Shown in pieces: positions 36,355-46,457 of a stretch of 64,000 nucleotides of DNA (positions within the stretch are counted from its first letter, which is position 1; each line of letters begins with the position of its first letter). The DNA is taken from assembly GCA_021793315.1 (NCBI GenBank), contig JAJYSZ010000006.1, positions 459 through 64,458 on the forward strand. The letters run 5' to 3'. Both the position numbers and the translations under genes were made by a program. The notes beneath the pieces are model-generated. The model did no database searches, was not told the origin of the DNA, and saw nothing but the letters and a program-made list of their open reading frames with translations. This DNA is from Bacillota bacterium. GTDB lineage: Bacteria > Bacillota > Sulfobacillia > JAJZYS01 > JAJYTV01.

Positions 36355-36590
36355 AAATAGAAAAACGCCGTCACCCTCAAGGGGCGACGGACCGCGGTAC
36401 CACCCTCATTCTCCAGCCAGGAGCGGCCGGACTCTCGCCGATCACGGTGGCACCGGCGCGCCCTTGGCCCAGGGGCTTCGTGCGCGCACTCCGGAGGCAT
36501 CACCCTGCGCGCAGTCCGCCGGCTTCCACCATCCCGGCTCGCTCTGGGACCGCTTCCCGCGGGCGCTCTCCATCGTCGTTTTCGCTTATT
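36355..36590 (-). ncRNA. T-box riboswitch (Met specifier) upstream of metG
   Basis: T-box AATGAGGGTGGTACCGCGG (36410-36392), terminator CGTCGCCCC-ttga-GGGTGACG-GCGTTTTT, Stem I motifs AGAG/GGTGGAA, candidate ATG specifier at 36500-36498. Confidence 0.93.
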
Positions 36591-37406: not shown

Positions 37407-37420
37407 CGAACATCCGTTGG
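37407..37420. promoter_or_regulatory. Candidate LexA/DinR (SOS) box upstream of ssb
   Basis: CGAACATCCGTTGG versus Firmicute consensus CGAACRNRYGTTYG (12 of 14 positions fit). Confidence 0.45.
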
Positions 37421-37428
37421 AAGGTGTG
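37417..37428 (+). repeat. 12-bp direct repeat, left copy (TTGGAAGGTGTG)
   Basis: Identical to 46446-46457; the two copies bracket the ssb-tadC cluster. Confidence 0.7.
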
Positions 37429-37449
37429 CCCAGTTCAAGGATCGAATGT
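37420..37449 (+). promoter_or_regulatory. sigmaH-like promoter for the ssb cluster
   Basis: GAAGGTGTG-N12-ATCGAATGT versus RNAGGAWWW-N11/12-RNNGAATWW. Confidence 0.4.
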
Positions 37450-37480
37450 AAACCATGGTCCAGGAAAGGGGATAGGTTCC

Positions 37481-37840
37481 ATGATCAACAGAGTTGTGCT
37501 TGTCGGACGCCTCGCCACGGATTCCGTCCTCAGATATTCCCGCGACGGCCTCGCGATCTCGGCGTTCTCGCTGGCGATCGGCCGCGCGGACAGCGCGGCG
37601 GACTTCCTTCCCGTCGTCGTGTTCCGCAGGCTTGCCGAAGCCACCTCCCGCTACCTGCTCAAAGGCAGGCTCGTCGGCATCGAGGGGCGCATCGCCAGCC
37701 GACCGCTCGACACGTCGGACGGCGAGCAGCGCCGCGTGATCGAGGTCGTGGCGGACCGCCTGCGCTTCCTGGATCCGCCGCTGGCCCTGGGCGAGGAAAC
37801 CCCCGCAGCCAAGGCGGCCGACTCGTCGGCACAGGATTAG
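37481..37840 (+). CDS. ssb: Short single-stranded DNA-binding protein (SsbB-like, no acidic tip)
   Basis: MINRVVLVGRL..D..LRY, DFLPVVVF..LAE, KGRLVGIEGRI, EVVAD..RFLD; 119 aa, no DDDIPF tail. Confidence 0.9.
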   Translation: MINRVVLVGRLATDSVLRYSRDGLAISAFSLAIGRADSAADFLPVVVFRRLAEATSRYLLKGRLVGIEGRIASRPLDTSDGEQRRVIEVVADRLRFLDPPLALGEETPAAKAADSSAQD

Positions 37841-37844
37841 CCTC

Positions 37845-38087
37845 ATGCCCATCCTGCAGTTCGTCCTCAATGCCATCACGACGCTGCAGAGCTGGTTTGC
37901 GGGTTTCGCGGTGCTCGCACTGCTGTACGGCGCCTACCTGCTCTGGACAAGCGGCGACAACCCCCAGAGCCGGACACGGGCCTGGGGCCACCTGTACTCG
38001 GTCGCGGCCGGGCTTGTGCTCGTGATCTTCGCCAAGGACATCGTGCGGGTGATCTTTCAATGGGCTGGACTTTCCGCGCCGCTTTGA
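37845..38087 (+). CDS. Small two-TM protein, TrbC/VirB2 pilin-like
   Basis: 80 aa; hydrophobic helix, polar loop TSGDNPQSRTRA, second helix AAGLVLVIFAKDIV; position beside VirB6- and PrgI-like genes. Confidence 0.6.
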   Translation: MPILQFVLNAITTLQSWFAGFAVLALLYGAYLLWTSGDNPQSRTRAWGHLYSVAAGLVLVIFAKDIVRVIFQWAGLSAPL

Positions 38088-38764
38088 GCCCCGCGCTGCA
38101 GCGTGCCTACGGCTGGGTGGGCGCTCTGCTCTGGGCGCACGGCTTCCCGCCATCCGGCCCGGTGGTGTCGGAGCTGGCGCACATCTCGCTGCTGGCGGGC
38201 GGCGCGCTCGCCGTGCCGCTCTTCATGCTGGAGGCAGGCGCAGGTCGCTCCCTGCATGCCTTTGCCCGCCTGGTGCTCGCAGTGGGGGGCGTCCTCGTGA
38301 GCCACACGATCTTCTCGTGGCTTTGGCAACTCAATGACGCCCTCGTCGCCACCATCGGCAAGGTGGCGGGATCGGTTGCCGTGCCTTCACCGGGCTTCGG
38401 CTCCACCCTGATCGACCTGCTCGTCTTCGGCCTCCCCTACCTGCTCATGCTCGTCTTCCTGGCCGGGCTCCTCCTGGCGCGTCTGGCGGCGCTCGCGCTG
38501 CTGTCCGCCATCGCTCCGCTCGCCTTTCTGCTCGGCATCCACGAACGCCTCGGACGTCTCACCATGCTCTGGCTCTGGCAGACGGCCGCCTGGTCGATCC
38601 TGCCCGCCGCCGAAGCTTTCATCCTGGTCGGTGTAAGGGGTCTGGCGGGAGAGCTCGCGATCGCGGTGCCGGCGTCGGATATGCTGCTGAGTCTCGTGCT
38701 GCTCTTCTTCATGCTGCGACTGCCTTTCACCCTGCTTGGCGCCTGGCGGCGCCTTCTGCCGTGA
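38060..38764 (+). CDS. Polytopic membrane protein, VirB6/TrbL-like
   Basis: About 5 TM segments with RLAALALLSAIAPLAFLL..HERLGRL..LWL pattern; start uncertain. Confidence 0.6.
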   Translation: MGWTFRAALSPALQRAYGWVGALLWAHGFPPSGPVVSELAHISLLAGGALAVPLFMLEAGAGRSLHAFARLVLAVGGVLVSHTIFSWLWQLNDALVATIGKVAGSVAVPSPGFGSTLIDLLVFGLPYLLMLVFLAGLLLARLAALALLSAIAPLAFLLGIHERLGRLTMLWLWQTAAWSILPAAEAFILVGVRGLAGELAIAVPASDMLLSLVLLFFMLRLPFTLLGAWRRLLP

Positions 38765-39126
38765 AGTGCCACGTGCCCGTCGACCTGCTGCAGGTGCAGC
38801 CGCGCATCTGGGGCGACCTCGAGACCGGTCAGGCGGTCTGCCTGTTCGCGGCAGGAGTCTTGGCTCTTGCGGCGCTTGCCGGCCAACTGCCGCCTGCGGG
38901 GGCGGTCCTGATGGCGGCTCCCTTTGGCGGATATGCCTTGCTGGAGGTGGATGGCCAGCCGCTGCGCCGCATCGCACCCCGCCTCTGGCGGCACGTCGCG
39001 TGGCGCCGTCCGCCGACGGTGGACCTGGACCTAACGCTCTGGCAGGACGCGGTGCGGGACGTGCCCTTGCATCAGATGCAGGCGGTCCTGCATTGTCTAG
39101 TGGGTAGGATGCGCCGCGGCAGGTGA
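38761..39126 (+). CDS. PrgI-family (VirB3-like) protein
   Basis: VPVDLLQVQPRIWGDLETGQAV, two TMs, VDGQPLRR..W; GTGA overlap with the upstream stop. Confidence 0.65.
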   Translation: MKCHVPVDLLQVQPRIWGDLETGQAVCLFAAGVLALAALAGQLPPAGAVLMAAPFGGYALLEVDGQPLRRIAPRLWRHVAWRRPPTVDLDLTLWQDAVRDVPLHQMQAVLHCLVGRMRRGR

Positions 39127-39198
39127 GACGGCGCCAGCAGGCGAACGTACCGCCAACGCCGCAACTTCGGCGGCATAATTGCCATGGAGCGGGTGACG

Positions 39199-39999
39199 AT
39201 GACCATTCGCGTTTGCGTGGCAGGAGCCACCGGCTGGACTGGCGGCGCCGTCGCGCGGCAGATCATCTCGTCGGAGGGCTTTCGCCTGACGGGTGCCGTG
39301 GCACGCCGGCAGGCTGGCGTCGATATCGGTACGGCGCTCGGTTTGCCTGCGGCCGGCCTCACGATAGCGTCCGATCTCGAGTCCGCGCTCTTGGAACCGA
39401 CGGACGTACTGATCGACTACACCGCGCCGGATACGGTCAAGCGGCATGCCACCACCGCGCTCGAGCACGGCGTGCGGGTCGTGATCGGCACATCCGGGCT
39501 GACGGCGCAGGACTATGAGGAGATCGCGGCCCTGGCGACGGCCAAGGGGCTCGGCGTCATCGCGGCGGGCAACTTCTCCATCACGGCTGCCTTGGCCAAG
39601 CATTTCGCCCTGCTCACGGCAAAGTACATCCCCTCGTGGGAGATCGTCGACTACGCGGGCGCAAACAAGGTGGATGCTCCGAGTGGCACGGTGCAGGAAC
39701 TGGCCGAGGAGCTCGGGCAGGTCGCAAGGCCTCGCCAGGATCTGCCGCCTGAAGCCTTGCATGGACGCCCGGAAGCACGCGGCGCCGAGATCGAGGGCAC
39801 GCACGTGCACTCCCTGCGCCTGCCGAGCTACGTGATCGCCTTTGAGACCATCTTCGGCCTTCCCAACGAGAGGCTGACCATACGCCACGATGCCGGGTCC
39901 GGGGCTGACCCCTATGTCGCCGGCACCCTGCTGGCAGCGAAAGAGGTCCTGCGAGTGCAGGGGCTGGTGCGCGGCCTCGACCGCCTGCTCTTCGCCTGA
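39199..39999 (+). CDS. DapB-like reductase with non-canonical active site
   Basis: VAGATGWTG, DVLIDYT, VIGTSG, AGNFSI, KVDAPSGT, HSLRLP, TIRHDA; HH of ExHHxxKxDAPSGT replaced (DYAGANKVDAPSGT). Confidence 0.85.
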   Translation: MTIRVCVAGATGWTGGAVARQIISSEGFRLTGAVARRQAGVDIGTALGLPAAGLTIASDLESALLEPTDVLIDYTAPDTVKRHATTALEHGVRVVIGTSGLTAQDYEEIAALATAKGLGVIAAGNFSITAALAKHFALLTAKYIPSWEIVDYAGANKVDAPSGTVQELAEELGQVARPRQDLPPEALHGRPEARGAEIEGTHVHSLRLPSYVIAFETIFGLPNERLTIRHDAGSGADPYVAGTLLAAKEVLRVQGLVRGLDRLLFA

Positions 40000-40027
40000 C
40001 CGCCCCCTCGTCCAATCCACGGTGCCT

Positions 40028-40061
40028 GGCGGCGCCCCATCGCGGGGCGCCGCCTTTCTTT
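40028..40061 (+). terminator. Intrinsic terminator after the dapB-like gene
   Basis: GGCGGCGCCCC-atcgc-GGGGCGCCGCC-TTTCTTT. Confidence 0.85.
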
Positions 40062-40121
40062 GCCCTCTTCCGGCCGGCACGGGGAGGCTTGGCGCCCCCG
40101 CACGGGTGACATCGCAACCGT

Positions 40122-40135
40122 AGGTTACATAACCT
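40122..40135. promoter_or_regulatory. Palindrome, possible operator
   Basis: AGGTTA-CA-TAACCT, 25 nt upstream of the 40161 ORF. Confidence 0.4.
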
Positions 40136-40160
40136 GCTGCAAGACCCTCGAAAGGAGCGC

Positions 40161-40505
40161 TTGCACGTGATTGTGACACGCGCGGGCAACCTGTGGATCT
40201 ACCCAAGCCTCGTCTGCGCTCCGACCGCGGCGTCGGTGGACGCAAGCGCCACCGCGGAGCCGCCCAGTCTCATCCTCGGCAGCGGGACCACGACCGTCGG
40301 CGCCGACGCCTATCAGCTGTCGTTCCACCAGGGAGAGCTAAAGGTCGAGACCCTGCGGTACTCAGACCCGTTCCCAACGTCCGCTCGGCCGAGGAGCCTG
40401 CCGCAGGCGCCACATTACGTCCTCTCTGGCGCTCCCGATTCGCCTCCCGACATGGTGTCCCAGGATGCGGGCCCGATGCGCTGGTGGGTGCCTCACCGAG
40501 ACTGA
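40161..40505 (+). CDS. Hypothetical protein (114 aa)
   Basis: SD AAAGGAG before TTG; no recognisable family. Confidence 0.45.
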   Translation: MHVIVTRAGNLWIYPSLVCAPTAASVDASATAEPPSLILGSGTTTVGADAYQLSFHQGELKVETLRYSDPFPTSARPRSLPQAPHYVLSGAPDSPPDMVSQDAGPMRWWVPHRD

Positions 40506-40773
40506 GCCGCAGGCAAACGAGAGATGGGGAGGCCTGCTAGGCGCAGGCGGCACCCATTGCCCACGTGCATCCGATGCGGCGCACCGCTTCGCCTGCCACC
40601 TGCTCCCAGCTCGGGGCAGACAATCTGTCCAGGGCTCCTCGCGCAGACTGGTTCACCCGGAACCCGAACAGTATTTTGAAGGAATCAATGTCAGCATCTG
40701 GAACTATGGCCTATCCTCCCTGGAAGGTCGTGGTTCCCTTGGCGTTGCGACGCTCCGGTCCCCGCGCTCGGCC

Positions 40774-42477
40774 ATGCGCCTGACGCATCACCCCGATGCC
40801 CCGCAGCCAAAGGGCATCGTCTACGAGCTCGGCCGCAGGGAGTATGCCTGGCTGCCGCCCGAGGAACGCGACGCCTATCAGGCAGCGCTGCGCAACTTCC
40901 TCCTTGCCGCGCAAGGGCCTCTGTTCTTCACGCTGTCTCTGCAGTCCGGCGAGAGACACCTTTACCTCTGGCTTGCGGACGGCGCGGGCAACCTGCAGGC
41001 GCTGCGAGACCTCGGCATCCGGGCGGACGCCCTGGGCCAGGAGGCACCGCCAGAGCTCCGCTGGGCCATCGCCAATCCCGCCCTACCCCCTTGGTACAGG
41101 AGCGTCGGGCGCACGGCCGCCGGACCGCGTGCTGCCAGTCCTACCTCAGGGCGCACCAGGCCTCGCCCCCACGTTCGCCTGCTCGAGGCGGGCACCGGCT
41201 ACCGCCAGCTCATGGGCGTGGAGGCCTACCCCGAGCAGTTGGACGAGCTCAGCCTCGAGCGCCTGTGGGCGCTCTCGCAGACTGCGATCGTCTCGCTGCG
41301 CCTCGCGCCGCTTTCCGCCGCCCAGGCCCGCATTCGCTTGGAACACCGCCTGCAGCACCTGCACGCGAGCTCCTTCCTGCGCCGCCAGCGCGGCCGCCTC
41401 CCGGATGCCGAGGCCGAGAAGGCCCAGGAGGACGCCCTGCGGTTGCGCGAGGTGATTGTGGAGGGCCGTGAGCGGCTCTTCGCGGCAGCCCTGCTGGTCG
41501 CGGCGGAAGGACCGGACCGCCACAGCTGCGAGGCACAGGCGGCGCTTCAGCGCACGACATTCGCCGAGATGGGCTTCCTGCTGCAGGTGCAGCTGGGGCT
41601 GCAGGCGGCCCAGCAGGAGTGGCTCCTGCCCCAGCCGAGCCCCCGCGAGCCGCCGGCACGCCTGCTCACGGCCTCTGCGCTCTCCTGCCTCGATCTGACG
41701 CCTGCCGCGGCCCCCGCCGCCGAGGGCGACCAGTTGGGCGAGCACCTGCGTGACCGCACCCCTGTGCGGCGCGACCGCCTGCGCGCGGCCAACCCGATGG
41801 CGGTCGTGCTGGGCAGCCCGGGCCACGGAAAGTCGGCCTTCGTCAAGGCGGAGCTCCTGCGCCAGCGGCCGGACTGCCTGCTGGTGGTGGATCCCGAAGG
41901 GGAATACGGACCCGTCGTGGACCATCTCGGCGGCGCCGCCTGCACGTCCCTGCCCTCGGCGCCGCAGGACCCGCTCCGACTGGCTCTCTCACTGCGCACA
42001 CTGCCCCAGCCGGCTTGGCCCGGGCTGCTGCGCGAGGCGGCCCGGTACGCCATCTCGTCGGCGGAGGCCATCGCCCTTCAGCGCCCGTTCTGGCTGACTC
42101 TTGACGAGGGCCATCTCTGGCTGGGTCCCGGCGGAGCCGAAGATGCCCTTGTCGATCTCGCCAAGCGGGCGCGCAAGCGCGGCCTGATCGTCACGATCGT
42201 CACTCAGAACGTGGGCGACTTCGTGCACTCCCAGGGCGGCCAGCTCGTCCTGGCCAACGCCGGCCGCCTGACGCTCTTTCATCAGCAGCCAAGCGACCTG
42301 CCTCGCCTCAAGGAAGTGCTGCACCTCTCCGACCGCGCCCTCGACTTCCTGCGCGCCTGCCGGCCAGGCGAGGCCCTGCTTCTCGATGAGTACGGCACCG
42401 TCCCGTTCCACGTGAGCCTCGCGGAGGAGGAGCTGCAACTTGTCGATACGCGTCCCGCGTTTGCGCGCGCTCGCTGA
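40774..42477 (+). CDS. VirB4/TraE-like ATPase
   Basis: Walker A GSPGHGKS, LVVDPEGEY, Walker B LTLDEGH, RARKRG..VTQ, FHQQ; N-terminal YAWLPPEERDAYQAALRNFL; ATG 40774 lacks an SD and the frame is open back to 40465. Confidence 0.85.
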   Translation: MRLTHHPDAPQPKGIVYELGRREYAWLPPEERDAYQAALRNFLLAAQGPLFFTLSLQSGERHLYLWLADGAGNLQALRDLGIRADALGQEAPPELRWAIANPALPPWYRSVGRTAAGPRAASPTSGRTRPRPHVRLLEAGTGYRQLMGVEAYPEQLDELSLERLWALSQTAIVSLRLAPLSAAQARIRLEHRLQHLHASSFLRRQRGRLPDAEAEKAQEDALRLREVIVEGRERLFAAALLVAAEGPDRHSCEAQAALQRTTFAEMGFLLQVQLGLQAAQQEWLLPQPSPREPPARLLTASALSCLDLTPAAAPAAEGDQLGEHLRDRTPVRRDRLRAANPMAVVLGSPGHGKSAFVKAELLRQRPDCLLVVDPEGEYGPVVDHLGGAACTSLPSAPQDPLRLALSLRTLPQPAWPGLLREAARYAISSAEAIALQRPFWLTLDEGHLWLGPGGAEDALVDLAKRARKRGLIVTIVTQNVGDFVHSQGGQLVLANAGRLTLFHQQPSDLPRLKEVLHLSDRALDFLRACRPGEALLLDEYGTVPFHVSLAEEELQLVDTRPAFARAR

Positions 42478-43006
42478 GCGCCTGCGCGACCCGCTCTGGC
42501 TGCCGGTGCTGAGTGCGCTCTTCGCCCTGCTGGCCTACGAGGCGGCCAGCCTCGGCTCGGGCCAGACCATCCTGGTCGCCGCGCGGAACCTCCCTGCCGG
42601 CGCCCAGTTGACGGCCGCCGAGGTGCGCCGGGCGCACTGGACGGGCAGCCTGCCCGGGCCCGTGCTGACGCGGCCGCAGGGACGCCTCGTTGCCCCGGTG
42701 GCCGCGGGCCTGCCTCTGCTGCGCAGCGCCGTCCGCCTGAGCTTCCCGCGGTCTCAGACCGAGCAGGTGGTGGGCATTCCGTCGGTCTCGCTCCTCAGCG
42801 CCCCGCCCCTCTCGGTGGGCGAGGCTGTCTCTGTCTACATCGCACAGGCAGGAGAGCCGCCGCAGCGCGTCGTGTCCTCCGCGCGCGTCGCCCAGAGCGG
42901 TACGGGCGGCGCGGTCGCGATCCAGGTGTCGGCCGCGAGTCTACCGGCGCTCCTGGCGGGCGTCGCCGCCGGCCACCTGATCATTACCGCAATGCCGCAA
43001 GAGTAG
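42440..43006 (+). CDS. SAF-domain protein, CpaB/RcpC-like
   Basis: N-terminal TM then ILVAARNLPAGAQLTAAEV (SAF); SVGEAVSVY. Confidence 0.75.
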   Translation: MSIRVPRLRALAERLRDPLWLPVLSALFALLAYEAASLGSGQTILVAARNLPAGAQLTAAEVRRAHWTGSLPGPVLTRPQGRLVAPVAAGLPLLRSAVRLSFPRSQTEQVVGIPSVSLLSAPPLSVGEAVSVYIAQAGEPPQRVVSSARVAQSGTGGAVAIQVSAASLPALLAGVAAGHLIITAMPQE

Positions 43007-43017
43007 GAGGGATCGCC

Positions 43018-43893
43018 ATGCGCTCGCTCTACGCCCTGCATCCAGAGACGGTGCTGCAGCTGCATGAGCGCGGTGCGGCCGTCTATGGGCAGCCGCTGAC
43101 CCTTTCGCTCGCCGAAACGGAGGACCGCATGCTGCACGAGGAGTACGCGCGCGTCGTCATCGACCCGGGACTTGTCCGCTCGAGCGAGGAGCAGCGAGCC
43201 CTGCGCCGCATCGAGGTGATCCATCCGGACGCGGAGATCGCCTGGCTGCGCGGGCGCTTCTCGGCCCGCGGCGACCTGGCCATCGCCGATCTCGCGGCGG
43301 AACTCCGCGGCGAGAGCCCCAGCGAGGAGCCGGCGCTCGCGGTGGTGGTGGCACCCGGCGACGCCGTCCAGGGCGCAGCTGTAGCCCTCGGCGTCGCCCA
43401 CTATCTGGCGCGCAGCCGCGACACCCTGCTCGTCGAGACGGACACGGCCGAACCCGTATACGCGCGGCGGCTGCAGTTAAGGCCGTGCCTCGCCGAGTAC
43501 ATGGCCGCCGGGCAGGCCCTGGCGCCTGAGGGCTATCCGCGACGGCTTCGGCTCGTGCCGGCACCGGTCCAGCCGGAACTGCTGCTGCAGGCCGGCATGC
43601 AGCCGCTCCTCGACCGGCTTGAGCATAACCTCAGCCAGGGCAACGTCATCGTGCGGGCCAGCGCGAATCTCGCAGACCGCGGCCTGATCGCCTCGCTGGC
43701 GCACGCGAGCGACATTCTGCTCGTCGCGGGTGGCGGCGAGCCCGACTACAGGCGCTGGCTGCAGGGGCTCGCACCGCATGCCCGCCTGACCCCGGTGGCT
43801 GCGGGTCGCCTCACCTTCCGCAGGCCGACCCTCGCGCGTCACGGGGAGCAGATCTGGCGACAGCGCGAGGAGACTCCGGACCATGGTCGCTGA
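43018..43893 (+). CDS. CpaE/MinD-like protein with degenerate P-loop
   Basis: Receiver-like N-terminus; VALGVAHYLAR..TLLVETD; deviant Walker A absent; position between cpaB and tadA. Confidence 0.55.
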   Translation: MRSLYALHPETVLQLHERGAAVYGQPLTLSLAETEDRMLHEEYARVVIDPGLVRSSEEQRALRRIEVIHPDAEIAWLRGRFSARGDLAIADLAAELRGESPSEEPALAVVVAPGDAVQGAAVALGVAHYLARSRDTLLVETDTAEPVYARRLQLRPCLAEYMAAGQALAPEGYPRRLRLVPAPVQPELLLQAGMQPLLDRLEHNLSQGNVIVRASANLADRGLIASLAHASDILLVAGGGEPDYRRWLQGLAPHARLTPVAAGRLTFRRPTLARHGEQIWRQREETPDHGR

Positions 43894-44818
43894 GACGCAC
43901 CTCGGGTACTGGCTGGGCCCGCTCGAGGCCGCGTTCCGGGACGAGCAGGTGAGCGAGATCATGGTTCTCGACTTCGACCGCGTGTTCGTCGAGCGGCGTG
44001 GCGCGATCGTGCCCGAGCCGATCGCGTTCCCAGACCGGCGTGCCTTGCAGGAGTTGATCGAACGGCTGCTGCTGCCGCTCGGACGCGAGCTGACGCAGGC
44101 CTCGCCCTACACCGACGGACGGCTCGGCGACGGCGTGCGCTTCACCGCCACGATGCCGCCCTTGACGCCCGCACCCACCCTGACGATCCGCAAGGTGGCC
44201 AAGGTCGACCTCGAGCGGGCATGGCTCGAGGCGCTGGAGGGCGATGAGCGGCCCATACGCATCCTGCGCTCCTGGGTGCGCAGCCGCCGAAACGTGGTGA
44301 TCGCGGGCGCGGCGGGCACCGGCAAGACGTCGCTCGTCCGCCTCCTCGCCGAGGTCATCGACCCGTCCGAACGCCTGCTGACCATCGAGGAGACGCGCGA
44401 GCTCGAGCTGGGCAGGGTCCACCCGCACGTGGTCGCCCTCGAGACGCGCTCCCCGAACCGCGCCGGACTCTATGCGATCGACCTCGAGGATCTCCTTCGA
44501 CTTGCGCTGCACATGCGTCCGGACCGCATCATCGTCGGTGAGATCCGCGGGCGCGAGACCGTGGCCTGGCTTTCTGCCCTCGACACGGGACACCGCGGCA
44601 GCCTGACGACCTTGCATGCCACCTCCGCCTGGGATGTCATCGACCGCCTGCTCTACGCGGCCGCCCCGGCGCGCAGCATGCCGCCGCGCCTGCTGCGGCA
44701 GCGCCTACGCCATCTCCTGGGCGGCGTCGTGCACCTGGAGCGCCTGCCGGGCGGCAGCCGCCAGCCCACCCTGCTGCTGCAGTACGAAGGCGGCCGCGCC
44801 GAGCAGGTGTGGCCATGA
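43883..44818 (+). CDS. tadA: CpaF/TadA (VirB11-family) secretion ATPase
   Basis: DEQVSEIMV, TIRK, GAAGTGKT, TIEETREL, MRPDRIIVGEIRG, TGHRGSLTTLHA. Confidence 0.9.
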   Translation: MVAETHLGYWLGPLEAAFRDEQVSEIMVLDFDRVFVERRGAIVPEPIAFPDRRALQELIERLLLPLGRELTQASPYTDGRLGDGVRFTATMPPLTPAPTLTIRKVAKVDLERAWLEALEGDERPIRILRSWVRSRRNVVIAGAAGTGKTSLVRLLAEVIDPSERLLTIEETRELELGRVHPHVVALETRSPNRAGLYAIDLEDLLRLALHMRPDRIIVGEIRGRETVAWLSALDTGHRGSLTTLHATSAWDVIDRLLYAAAPARSMPPRLLRQRLRHLLGGVVHLERLPGGSRQPTLLLQYEGGRAEQVWP

Positions 44819-45522
44819 CCGGCGCCCTCCTCCTGGCGTCCCTCGCGCTCCTCGGCACCAGTCTCGCGACGGCGGGGGCCAGAGCCGCCTTGCGCTGGCT
44901 CCCGCCCCTTGCGGCGCTCGCGGCCACCCTGACCTCAGGAGCCGCGGTGGGGCTGGCGGCCGCGGGATCCGTCGCCCTCTGGCAGGCCGCCCTCGCCCGC
45001 TACCTCCGACACATGCGCCGCCGGCGGCTGCAGGCTGCAGCAGAGGAGCCCATCCAGGCCATGTTCGAACAAGCCTCCCTCTACGGCAGCGCGGAACTCT
45101 GCGCCCTGGCCGCGTTGCCCGCCTGCAACGAAGCTTTGCGCCCGCTCTGGCAGGCTGCCCTCGCCGACTGGCTGCGCGGCGGCACGAGCGAGGCGGCGTT
45201 CGCCGCGGCCGGCCGCAGGGCTGGCATTCCGCTCCTGATCCGGCTGGCGCGGGCGCTGGCGCTCAGCCGGCACACCGGCTCGCCGCTCGACCGCCACCTC
45301 GCCGTCCTGCTCGAGGACGCCGCAGACGACCGCCGCGAGATGGCGAGTGTGGAAGGCGAGACCTTGCCGTACTTCGTGATCACCGCGCTGATGGCCACGG
45401 GCCTCCTCCTGGCCGGCCTCTTCCTCGCCGCCGAAGGGAGGGCTCCGCTGCCCTGGCTGGTGGCCCTTGCGCTCGCGACCGGCGGTGCCGTGCCCTGGCT
45501 CGCGTCGGCGCTCCTGCCATGA
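44815..45522 (+). CDS. TadB-like inner-membrane platform protein
   Basis: N-terminal TMs, T2SSF-like ..RLARALALSRHTGSPL..L..L; ATGA overlap with tadA. Confidence 0.65.
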   Translation: MTGALLLASLALLGTSLATAGARAALRWLPPLAALAATLTSGAAVGLAAAGSVALWQAALARYLRHMRRRRLQAAAEEPIQAMFEQASLYGSAELCALAALPACNEALRPLWQAALADWLRGGTSEAAFAAAGRRAGIPLLIRLARALALSRHTGSPLDRHLAVLLEDAADDRREMASVEGETLPYFVITALMATGLLLAGLFLAAEGRAPLPWLVALALATGGAVPWLASALLP

Positions 45523-46154
45523 TGCGCGCTCTCCTGTGGCTGCTCGCGGCCGCAGCAGTCTGGCGCGCCGGTCGCCAGCGCCTCCCGCTGCTGCCGATCT
45601 GGCTCATCCTGGCGCTCCTGGCGCCGTGGACGCTCATCGTGCTGGCACTGGCGGGTCCGGCCATCCGGCTCGGCCGGGGCCTGCGGGACTCCATCGCCCG
45701 CAGCGCGGCTCGCATTGAGGTGCGCCAGGCGGTGCCTGGGCTCCTCACAGACCTCGCGATGGCCGCCGCCGCGGGTCAGCCCCTGCACGCCGCCCTGCGC
45801 TACGCCGGGCTCTGGGCGGACGACCCTCTCGGCCCGGCCTTTGCCGCATTCCAGGACCAGGTGCAGAAGGGGCGCAGCGTGGCCGCGGCCCTCGAGTCCC
45901 TGCGCCTGGCTCTGCGGACGCCGGAGATGGACCGGCTCGTGGCGCTCCTTTCCCGCGACGCGCAGCTCGGGCTGCCGCTCAGCGACTCGATTGCGCGCTA
46001 CCGACGCAGCGCGCTGGGCGACGTGCGCAAAGAACTCCGCCGCAGCGCCGCCTACCTGCCCTACGTCTTCACGACGCTTGCGGGCATCGTGCTGCTCGAA
46101 GGCGTGGGGCTGATGGCCGTCCCCTGGCTTCTCTCGCTTTGGCAGTCCATCTGA
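45519..46154 (+). CDS. TadC-like inner-membrane platform protein
   Basis: PGLLTDLAMAAAAG.PL..AL, G.S...AL, Q.GLPLSDSI, C-terminal TM; ATGA overlap with tadB. Confidence 0.7.
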   Translation: MMRALLWLLAAAAVWRAGRQRLPLLPIWLILALLAPWTLIVLALAGPAIRLGRGLRDSIARSAARIEVRQAVPGLLTDLAMAAAAGQPLHAALRYAGLWADDPLGPAFAAFQDQVQKGRSVAAALESLRLALRTPEMDRLVALLSRDAQLGLPLSDSIARYRRSALGDVRKELRRSAAYLPYVFTTLAGIVLLEGVGLMAVPWLLSLWQSI

Positions 46155-46445
46155 CACAGGTCCAGCGGACCTCCGGACGCAGCAACTGGACGATGCGCCA
46201 GGGCGTCCCAGGCACTATGCTGGACTCTGCTGCGGGCGAACCTTCCCGTCGAGCCCTCCCGCCTCATGCATGCGGTCCCGCTCCACGCGACCCAGGTGGC
46301 GGCGGCGGCGAGAAGCGGACGGGATGCAATCGACGTCCTGTCCGGCGCGACGGCCACCATGGTCAGCCCCCAGCATGACGATCCAACCGATCCGGCTTGC
46401 GCGCGGCGCCGTGAGGCGACCGCGCGCAAGCGTGTCCTCTCGTCT

Positions 46446-46457
46446 TTGGAAGGTGTG
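46446..46457 (+). repeat. 12-bp direct repeat, right copy (TTGGAAGGTGTG)
   Basis: Identical to 37417-37428. Confidence 0.7.

Follow-up and report, generated by a model that had tools for sequence, protein, structure and literature searches.

A tight plus-strand gene cluster (37484-46154) in a 64,000-nt stretch of a Bacillota genome (contig JAJYSZ010000006.1; the whole stretch is called the window) combines a minimal monoderm type IV secretion system (T4SS) channel with the motor of a Tad pilus. We estimate a probability of about 0.5 that it belongs to a host-owned, vertically inherited, conjugation-type DNA-transfer apparatus encoded at three chromosomal loci. The window locus would supply the channel, consisting of VirB2-like, VirB6/TrbL-like, PrgI/VirB3-like and compact VirB4 proteins, with SAF/CpaB-like and CpaE/TadZ-like proteins that are always encoded alongside VirB4, followed by the Tad motor proteins TadA, TadB and TadC; in the family of the source organism (f1) the cluster is led by ssb, encoding a single-stranded DNA-binding protein (SSB). 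A second locus, beside abrB on contig C167 and contiguous with tadC in the ancestor, would provide a PKD-like protein and the pilins, one Flp-like and others resembling the minor pilin TadE. The third, on contig C79, would contribute a VirD4-like coupling ATPase of ~500 aa, whose gene overlaps that of a MOBC relaxase.

In the proposed mechanism, the system would be induced through a motif shared by operons of the first two loci, and Tad pili would draw cells together. The relaxase would then nick a chromosomal site, the coupling ATPase would pass single-stranded DNA into the VirB4/VirB6 channel, and the strand would be coated by SSB. This scheme presumes joint action of the three loci, DNA as the substrate and the direction of transfer. 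Its outcome would be a cell-to-cell route of DNA exchange for a lineage that lacks ComEC and DprA, and the cluster and the coupling protein-relaxase pair probably constitute that route.

Conjugation genes are usually selfish cargo of plasmids and integrative conjugative elements (ICEs). Here they seem to have been turned into host genes that are fixed, scattered over the chromosome and conserved at family-to-class depth, in a lineage lacking universal transformation genes. If the three loci act jointly, they would represent bacterial, host-owned exchange of chromosomal DNA between cells, which bears on the upkeep of recombination in extremophile Bacillota. The core module (pilin-virB6-prgI-virB4-SAF-cpaE) and the coupling protein-relaxase pair also occur in cultured Sulfobacillus (S. 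thermotolerans, S. acidophilus), making the idea testable.

Composition of the window cluster

Gene identities are based on gene calling by GC content at third codon positions (GC3) and on hidden Markov model (HMM) scans of the window proteins. Both bear out the co-directional ssb-to-tadC arrangement described in an earlier sequence-only reading of this DNA, with overlapping start and stop codons between adjacent genes and host-like GC and GC3. All ten genes named in that reading are found; a dapB gene, a terminator and a 720-nt spacer between prgI and virB4 (described below) had been overlooked.

The channel genes begin with a VirB2-like T4SS pilin of 80 aa with two transmembrane helices (37845-38087; PF18895, 3.6e-9, above cut-off; TrbC, 3.5e-5). 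This is the most constrained gene of the cluster, with 98% amino acid identity within the genus and a ratio of nonsynonymous to synonymous substitution (dN/dS) of 0.04-0.05; like all such ratios given here, this is a simple Nei-Gojobori estimate from a genome with strong GC3 bias. The following polytopic membrane protein (234 aa, 38060-38764) has no direct HMM match and is considered VirB6/TrbL-like, as its syntenic orthologue in family f4 matches TrbL_4 (PF19597, 1.3e-9, above cut-off) and TrbL/VirB6 (1.8e-3). A PrgI/VirB3-like protein of 121 aa (38761-39126; PF12666, 1.4e-6, above cut-off) precedes the compact VirB4-like ATPase (567 aa, 40774-42477). The latter matches NF045971 (conju_CD1110, 8.9e-37) and VirB4_CagE (TIGR00929, 1e-7), with partial coverage and under the equivalog cut-offs in both cases. 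Its Walker A sequence is GSPGHGKS, and both Walker A and Walker B are kept in the orthologues, which also share its start.

Two proteins of less certain assignment are encoded next. The SAF/CpaB-like protein (188 aa, 42440-43006), whose gene starts 38 nt within virB4, falls below cut-off for both SAF (E 0.0012; 19.8 bits against a cut-off of 21) and CpaB (TIGR03177, E 0.002). The CpaE/TadZ-like protein (291 aa, 43018-43893) has a degenerate P-loop and no HMM match; a PDB profile search returns VpsO at 0.011. Foldseek searches with its AlphaFold2 model, which is of low confidence (pLDDT 55), give CapAB, MinD and Wzc as weak top hits (E about 5e-3), so the predicted fold leans to MinD/ParA. The orthologue in family f3 retains the P-loop GGSGVTT. 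The SAF/CpaB-like gene always lies 3' of virB4, even in Sulfobacillus and f3, where TadABC are not found nearby; as the SAF/CpaB-like and CpaE-like genes still follow virB4 there, both belong with the VirB4 module. One genome (G020) has insertion sequences after the cpaE-like gene.

The Tad motor comprises a TadA/VirB11-class secretion ATPase of 311 aa (43883-44818; T2SSE, 1.4e-36; VirB11, 1.8e-43), for which the best family is TIGR03819 (6e-64), the TadA family conjugal-transfer-associated ATPase, and two platform proteins. The TadB-like protein (237 aa, 44809-45522) has a weak T2SSF match (E 0.008), conserved synteny and a dN/dS of 0.17, and the TadC-like protein (211 aa, 45519-46154) matches T2SSF at 1.7e-9.

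The first gene of the operon encodes a short SSB of 118 aa (37484-37840; PF00436, 2e-23; dN/dS 0.12-0.18). It ends in SSAQD, without an acidic C-terminal tail; the canonical paralogue, which adjoins rpsR on contig C43, ends in DDEPVPF. Its shortness, the missing acidic tip and its position in the operon would fit an SsbB-like protein of the competence type.

Inheritance, companion loci and loss of transformation genes

The cluster is chromosomal, vertically inherited and under purifying selection. Orthologous loci were taken from public metagenome-assembled genomes (MAGs) labelled 'Bacillota bacterium' and compared by tblastn; MAGs make up most of the genomes used. Every one of the ten family genomes encodes VirB4, at 59-82% identity, and more distant versions are found across the order. 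The entire cluster, in the same gene order and at the same site beside metG, is found in genera g1 and g2 of family f1 and in family f4, and f2 carries it at another site. The dN/dS values of all cluster genes (0.04-0.32) compare with 0.11-0.27 for flanking housekeeping genes. About 12 loci proved free of stops and frameshifts, and none of them has an integrase, a relaxase or a type IV coupling protein (T4CP). In the VirB4 tree, the copies of the order form one clade (support 100/99) whose topology follows taxonomy, apart from two ICE-borne VirB4s of the window genome. A patchy, ICE-like distribution, neutral dN/dS and frameshifts had been named in the sequence-only reading as signs that would speak against a domesticated system; none was seen, and the cluster is clade-wide at a fixed site.

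A 12-bp direct repeat bracketing the cluster (TTGGAAGGTGTG) was considered as a pair of att sites and rejected as a chance occurrence, its second copy (46446) being missing in four orthologous loci.

The origin of the system is suggested by mobile elements in the same genome. Contig C2 holds a true conjugative element encoding a MobL relaxase, a ParM-like protein, a T4CP, a T4SS pilin, TrbL_4, a split VirB4 and an SLT hydrolase, together with two ParA/CpaE-like proteins, TadA, TadB, TadC, a 1383-aa surface protein and RcpC/CpaB. Plasmids pL15 and pY0017 of Sulfobacillus have the same backbone of T4SS and T2SS-like genes (PMC6803676). With 32-38% identity to the resident ICE copies, the chromosomal system looks like an ancient domestication of a transfer module of the pL15/C2 type. 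Three resident elements of the pL15/pY0017 type are present, on C2 (6.5-29 kb), C189 and C104; they have in common the MobL relaxase, ParM-like protein, T4CP, T4SS pilin, TrbL_4 and a VirB4 split into two open reading frames (ORFs), to which C2 adds the full Tad-like module, the surface protein and RcpC/CpaB.

The pilin genes are found by comparison with family f4, where the operon runs past tadC into genes for a 71-aa Flp-like protein, a TadE-like protein, a second pseudopilin-like protein (152 aa) and a 209-aa PKD-like protein, followed directly by abrB-rsmI-holB. In the window genome, homologues of these four genes lie on C167, beside an SLT transglycosylase gene and abrB-rsmI-yaaT-holB. 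As the channel-Tad and flp halves are contiguous in f4 and ~20 kb apart on one contig in genus g2, an ancestral locus has been split by inserted DNA. The Flp-like and TadE-like candidates of C167 and f4 have in common an ERGDLS(T/A)Y motif, which lacks the canonical Glu5 and precedes a hydrophobic helix; HMM searches support them weakly or not at all (TadE, E 0.048). A Peptidase_A24 gene is present in the genome at an unlinked position. The transglycosylase, encoded between the flp-tadE operon and abrB (C167:3812-4318, minus strand), is membrane-anchored and 168 aa long, and may serve the system as its cell-wall hydrolase.

A conserved 17-nt motif 5' of ssb (GAACATCCGTTGGAAGG, 37408-37424, plus strand) has an invariant core in six orthologous loci. 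With up to two mismatches, the motif GAACATYNGTTGGWAGG has two sites in the 3.5-Mb genome, one 5' of ssb and the other 5' of the Flp-like gene on C167. Other f1 genomes have 1-3 sites each, with none for the reversed control, and no site is found in f2-f4. Since all inspected sites stand at the head of an ssb or flp operon, the motif is, judged by sequence, a cis-element (promoter or operator) shared by the two operons, which appear to remain one regulatory unit because it is common to both heads. The motif resembles the SOS box GAAC-N4-GTTC, yet no such box lies 5' of recA or lexA in the window genome; it is therefore not called an SOS box and is treated as a system-specific element. In one relative (L079, G002:C466:8825-11781), the motif region 5' of the flp operon has a second copy at a distance of 1.8 kb, and a toxin-antitoxin pair, Phd/YefM-VapC (PIN), has been inserted between the two.

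Coupling proteins were sought with PF02534, genome-wide and across the order. The search returned the T4CPs of the three resident conjugative elements and, in nearly every genome of the order, a weak match to an ORF of ~500 aa. In the window genome this ORF (C79:21467-22975) encodes a VirD4-like T4CP with N-terminal transmembrane helices and a P-loop domain, which scores above cut-off for PF02534 (31.4 bits against 20.1) and TrwB_AAD_bind. Its best NCBIfam match is the CD1115 VirD4-like family (3.8e-9), whose VirB4 counterpart in ICEs is the CD1110 family. The T4CP stop overlaps the relaxase start by 4 nt; the relaxase, of MOBC (Replic_Relax) type, is 227 aa long (C79:20787-21470; PF13814, 39.5 bits against a cut-off of 25.3). 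PF13814 represents the MOBC relaxase superfamily, usually paired with a VirD4-type T4CP (PMC5357655). A 246-aa ORF 5' of the T4CP gene was rejected as a gene, its dN/dS of 1-2 indicating a wrong frame.

The pair keeps its synteny throughout the family, is shared by f1, f4 and Sulfobacillus, and is under purifying selection, as indicated by dN/dS values of 0.09 and 0.19. About 60 of the 210 class genomes have it, in single copy; they belong to f1-f4, f10, f22, f45, f48 and f49, and the f10 carriers include Sulfobacillus thermotolerans Kr1, where it is chromosomal. This set is essentially that of the families with the short VirB4, the exception being f46, with VirB4 but only weak, long T4CP matches. 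Pairwise similarities of the pair and of VirB4 are correlated across seven genomes (r = 0.95). G012 and G013, two small genomes of f4, each contain a single VirB4 and a single T4CP/MOBC pair, and lack a full-length ICE-type T4CP. The absence of a relaxase, coupling protein, integrase, Flp pilin and prepilin peptidase, as claimed in the sequence-only reading, thus holds for the window, but the genome has most of these elsewhere, on C79 and C167 and as the unlinked Peptidase_A24. A cognate relaxase or T4CP, nearby or in orthologous loci, had been singled out there as evidence against a relaxase-free machine; none lies in those places, and the co-inherited, unlinked C79 pair comes close.

The order has lost transformation genes. 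None of its 15 genomes encodes the ComEC Competence domain, which 131 of 210 class genomes have, with control genomes as expected, and DprA is absent from the same 15 and present in 20 of 26 others; both absences are clade-level characters that reflect few independent events. ComEC is missing from every family of the class with a short VirB4, and the ComEC-negative clade includes Sulfobacillus and families f10, f22, f39, f45, f46, f48 and f49. DprA is also absent from the f10 genome G020. The lack of both genes strengthens the idea of domesticated, cell-contact DNA exchange.

A broader reading, which we offer tentatively and as somewhat less probable than not, is that a clade of the order, Sulfobacillaceae and allied families dropped natural transformation for a domesticated, relaxase-driven mating apparatus carried by no mobile element. 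It would entail loss of ComEC throughout the clade and of DprA in the order at least, direct cell-to-cell transfer of chromosomal DNA, and a role analogous to that of archaeal Ups/Ced.

Alternative functions and known systems

Several findings weigh against a joint DNA-transfer apparatus. The T4CP/MOBC pair never adjoins virB4 in complete genomes, and the 17-nt motif was not found 5' of the T4CP operon, so the functional link rests on co-distribution with VirB4; this is confounded by shared ancestry and may represent 1-3 independent events. Deep nodes of the VirB4 tree do not settle whether the clades of the order and of Sulfobacillaceae have a common origin. The system is also reduced in places: loci of Sulfobacillaceae (L081/L022) consist of pilin-virB6-prgI-virB4-SAF-cpaE-like, and in f3 (L019, G011) only virB4-SAF-cpaE-like is left, in both cases with no TadABC nearby. 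The operon-leading ssb is restricted to f1, and f4 loci are without it. No VirB8/TcpC-like scaffold or cell-wall hydrolase was found in the window cluster or the f4 loci, and the SLT gene beside the flp operon in the window genome is seen in this family alone, being absent at that place in f4. Lastly, the SAF, CpaE-like, Flp-like and TadE-like assignments are all under curated thresholds.

It is possible, though we think it unlikely, that the VirB2/VirB6/VirB3/VirB4 core is a Ced- or ComB-like importer that needs neither relaxase nor T4CP to take DNA from contacted cells or from the medium. Contact would be provided by the Tad pilus as Ups pili do, the SSB would guard the incoming strand, and the C79 pair would be unrelated, consistent with its lack of linkage and of the shared motif. 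The minimal component set resembles that of Ced, the SSB heading the operon is tail-less, and any uptake in a lineage with no ComEC needs another channel; Tad pili are reported to support transformation in Micrococcus luteus. However, the T4CP and MOBC relaxase are co-inherited in essentially every genome with the cluster, even where the genome has no other conjugative element. DprA, which loads imported single-stranded DNA, has been lost too, f4 has no ssb, and the similarity of VirB4 to the CedB model is insignificant (E 0.012, against 9e-37 for the Firmicute ICE VirB4 family). The sequence-only reading had proposed a domesticated Ced/Ups-like machine. Its notion of a domesticated, cell-contact DNA exchange survives, but its premise that there is no relaxase or T4CP is contradicted by the C79 pair.

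Similarly doubtful is a machine that does not handle DNA, in which the Tad genes would make an adhesion or aggregation pilus and the T4SS-like module would export pilus or surface proteins or deliver proteins on contact, the loss of ComEC and DprA being coincidental. The SAF, CpaE-like and PKD-like proteins do suggest surface assembly, and one ancestral loss may account for the ComEC correlation. Co-opted chromosomal T4SSs of monoderm type with no adjacent relaxase are known in Patescibacteria (PMC12102498). Such a function fits poorly with an SSB at the head of the f1 operon and with a T4CP and relaxase, both DNA-processing, of the same phyletic profile, and no candidate effector or immunity gene is present in any locus.

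The main alternative in the sequence-only reading, here an integrated conjugative element in decay or the remnant of a plasmid, is highly improbable: although components are homologous to the Firmicute ICE families CD1110 and CD1115 and mobile elements with T4SS and Tad genes occur in the same genome, it is effectively excluded because the same chromosomal site is occupied in two families of the order, selection is as on housekeeping genes, about 12 loci are free of stops and frameshifts, there is no integrase or conserved direct repeat, and the tree is congruent with taxonomy.

The system is closest to the MPF_FATA T4SSs of Firmicute ICEs and plasmids (Clostridioides difficile CD1110 VirB4 and CD1115 VirD4; PrgI; TrbL_4; T4SS_pilin), with which it shares protein families and the order pilin-VirB6-VirB3-VirB4; a relaxase and a VirD4-like T4CP are encoded elsewhere in the genome. 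The association with MinD/CpaE-like, TadA, TadB, TadC and CpaB proteins is also seen in pL15/pY0017 (PMC6803676) and C2. Unlike MPF_FATA elements, the system is immobile, occupies a fixed site, is inherited vertically under housekeeping-like selection, and is spread over three unlinked loci; it lacks an integrase, genes for replication or partition, a VirB8-like protein and a hydrolase of its own. Its VirB4 (567 aa) and T4CP (~500 aa) are compact, and its relaxase is of MOBC type, that of the resident mobile elements being of MobL type.

The T4SSs of Patescibacteria (PMC12102498) are likewise derived from MPF_FATA, have VirB2-like pilins, and are lineage-fixed and chromosomal, near core genes. 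They are mostly without a relaxase and occur with an epibiotic lifestyle and ComEC (PMC12102498), in contrast to the system described here, with a relaxase and T4CP, fused Tad genes and no ComEC or DprA. Resemblance to Tad/Flp pili, including the actinobacterial 'helicase/secretion neighbourhood' TadA (TIGR03819), extends to TadA, the T2SSF proteins TadB and TadC, putative CpaB/CpaE-like proteins, candidate pilins and Peptidase_A24. However, the pilin motif is without the canonical Glu5, several components are sub-threshold, and the genes are physically fused to a VirB4 module.

With archaeal Ced (CedA/A1/A2/B) and Ups, the system shares a reduced VirB2/VirB6/VirB4-like core, chromosomal location, vertical inheritance, a type-IV-filament pilus for contact and, as a probable function, exchange of chromosomal DNA. 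It differs in having pilus and channel in one operon, a VirB4 of bacterial ICE type, and a co-inherited T4CP and MOBC relaxase, neither of which is found in Ced. The T4SS of the gonococcal genetic island (GGI) of Neisseria gonorrhoeae secretes chromosomal single-stranded DNA by means of the TraI relaxase and the TraD T4CP. The GGI is a diderm, F-type island that is horizontally acquired and strain-variable, and the released DNA is taken up by ComEC-dependent transformation. The likeness lies in a chromosomally encoded T4SS with a relaxase and coupling protein that would here also act on chromosomal DNA, not on a mobile element.

Inserted and neighbouring features

Between prgI and virB4, the window has a dapB gene and intrinsic terminator (39184-40054, plus strand) that are not part of the machine. 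The dapB ORF (39184-39999) encodes 271 aa (TIGR00036, 5.7e-46), and the terminator (40028-40054) is strong, with 11 GC pairs. Both are confined to genus g1 (L023, L024, L027); in g2 and f4, virB4 directly follows prgI. They are thus a g1-specific insertion, splitting the operon into two transcription units. A second dapB paralogue, 37% identical, is located on contig C15. Fusion of prgI and virB4 in one ancestral gene cut by the insert was considered and rejected, given that the two genes overlap in different frames in g2 and are separate in f4.

The spacer of 720 nt that follows (40055-40773, plus strand) is a candidate new promoter region for virB4-tadC. It carries short AT-rich blocks in common with L023 (GTTACATAACYTG... 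and CCCGAACAGTATTTTG...), which probably form a new virB4 promoter. An ORF within it, orf114 (40161-40505), was rejected as a gene; it has no family match and only a 46-aa match in two loci, and is not conserved.

The next-nearest VirB4 relatives (L035-L064; 27-34% identity) are from Dormibacterota, Chloroflexia, Binatia, Streptomycetaceae and haloarchaea, and lack a TadA gene in the surrounding 10 kb. Near-identical VirB4 copies occur in many Dormibacterota MAGs.

Upstream, the cluster is flanked by ksgA, yabE, tatD, metG with a T-box leader, and an O-methyltransferase gene, and downstream by tag and a methyltransferase gene. An Rfam scan of the region gave nothing but the T-box leader 5' of metG (36377-36585, minus strand), which is sub-threshold at 44.8 bits (Rfam gathering threshold 93) and covers the full length of the model.

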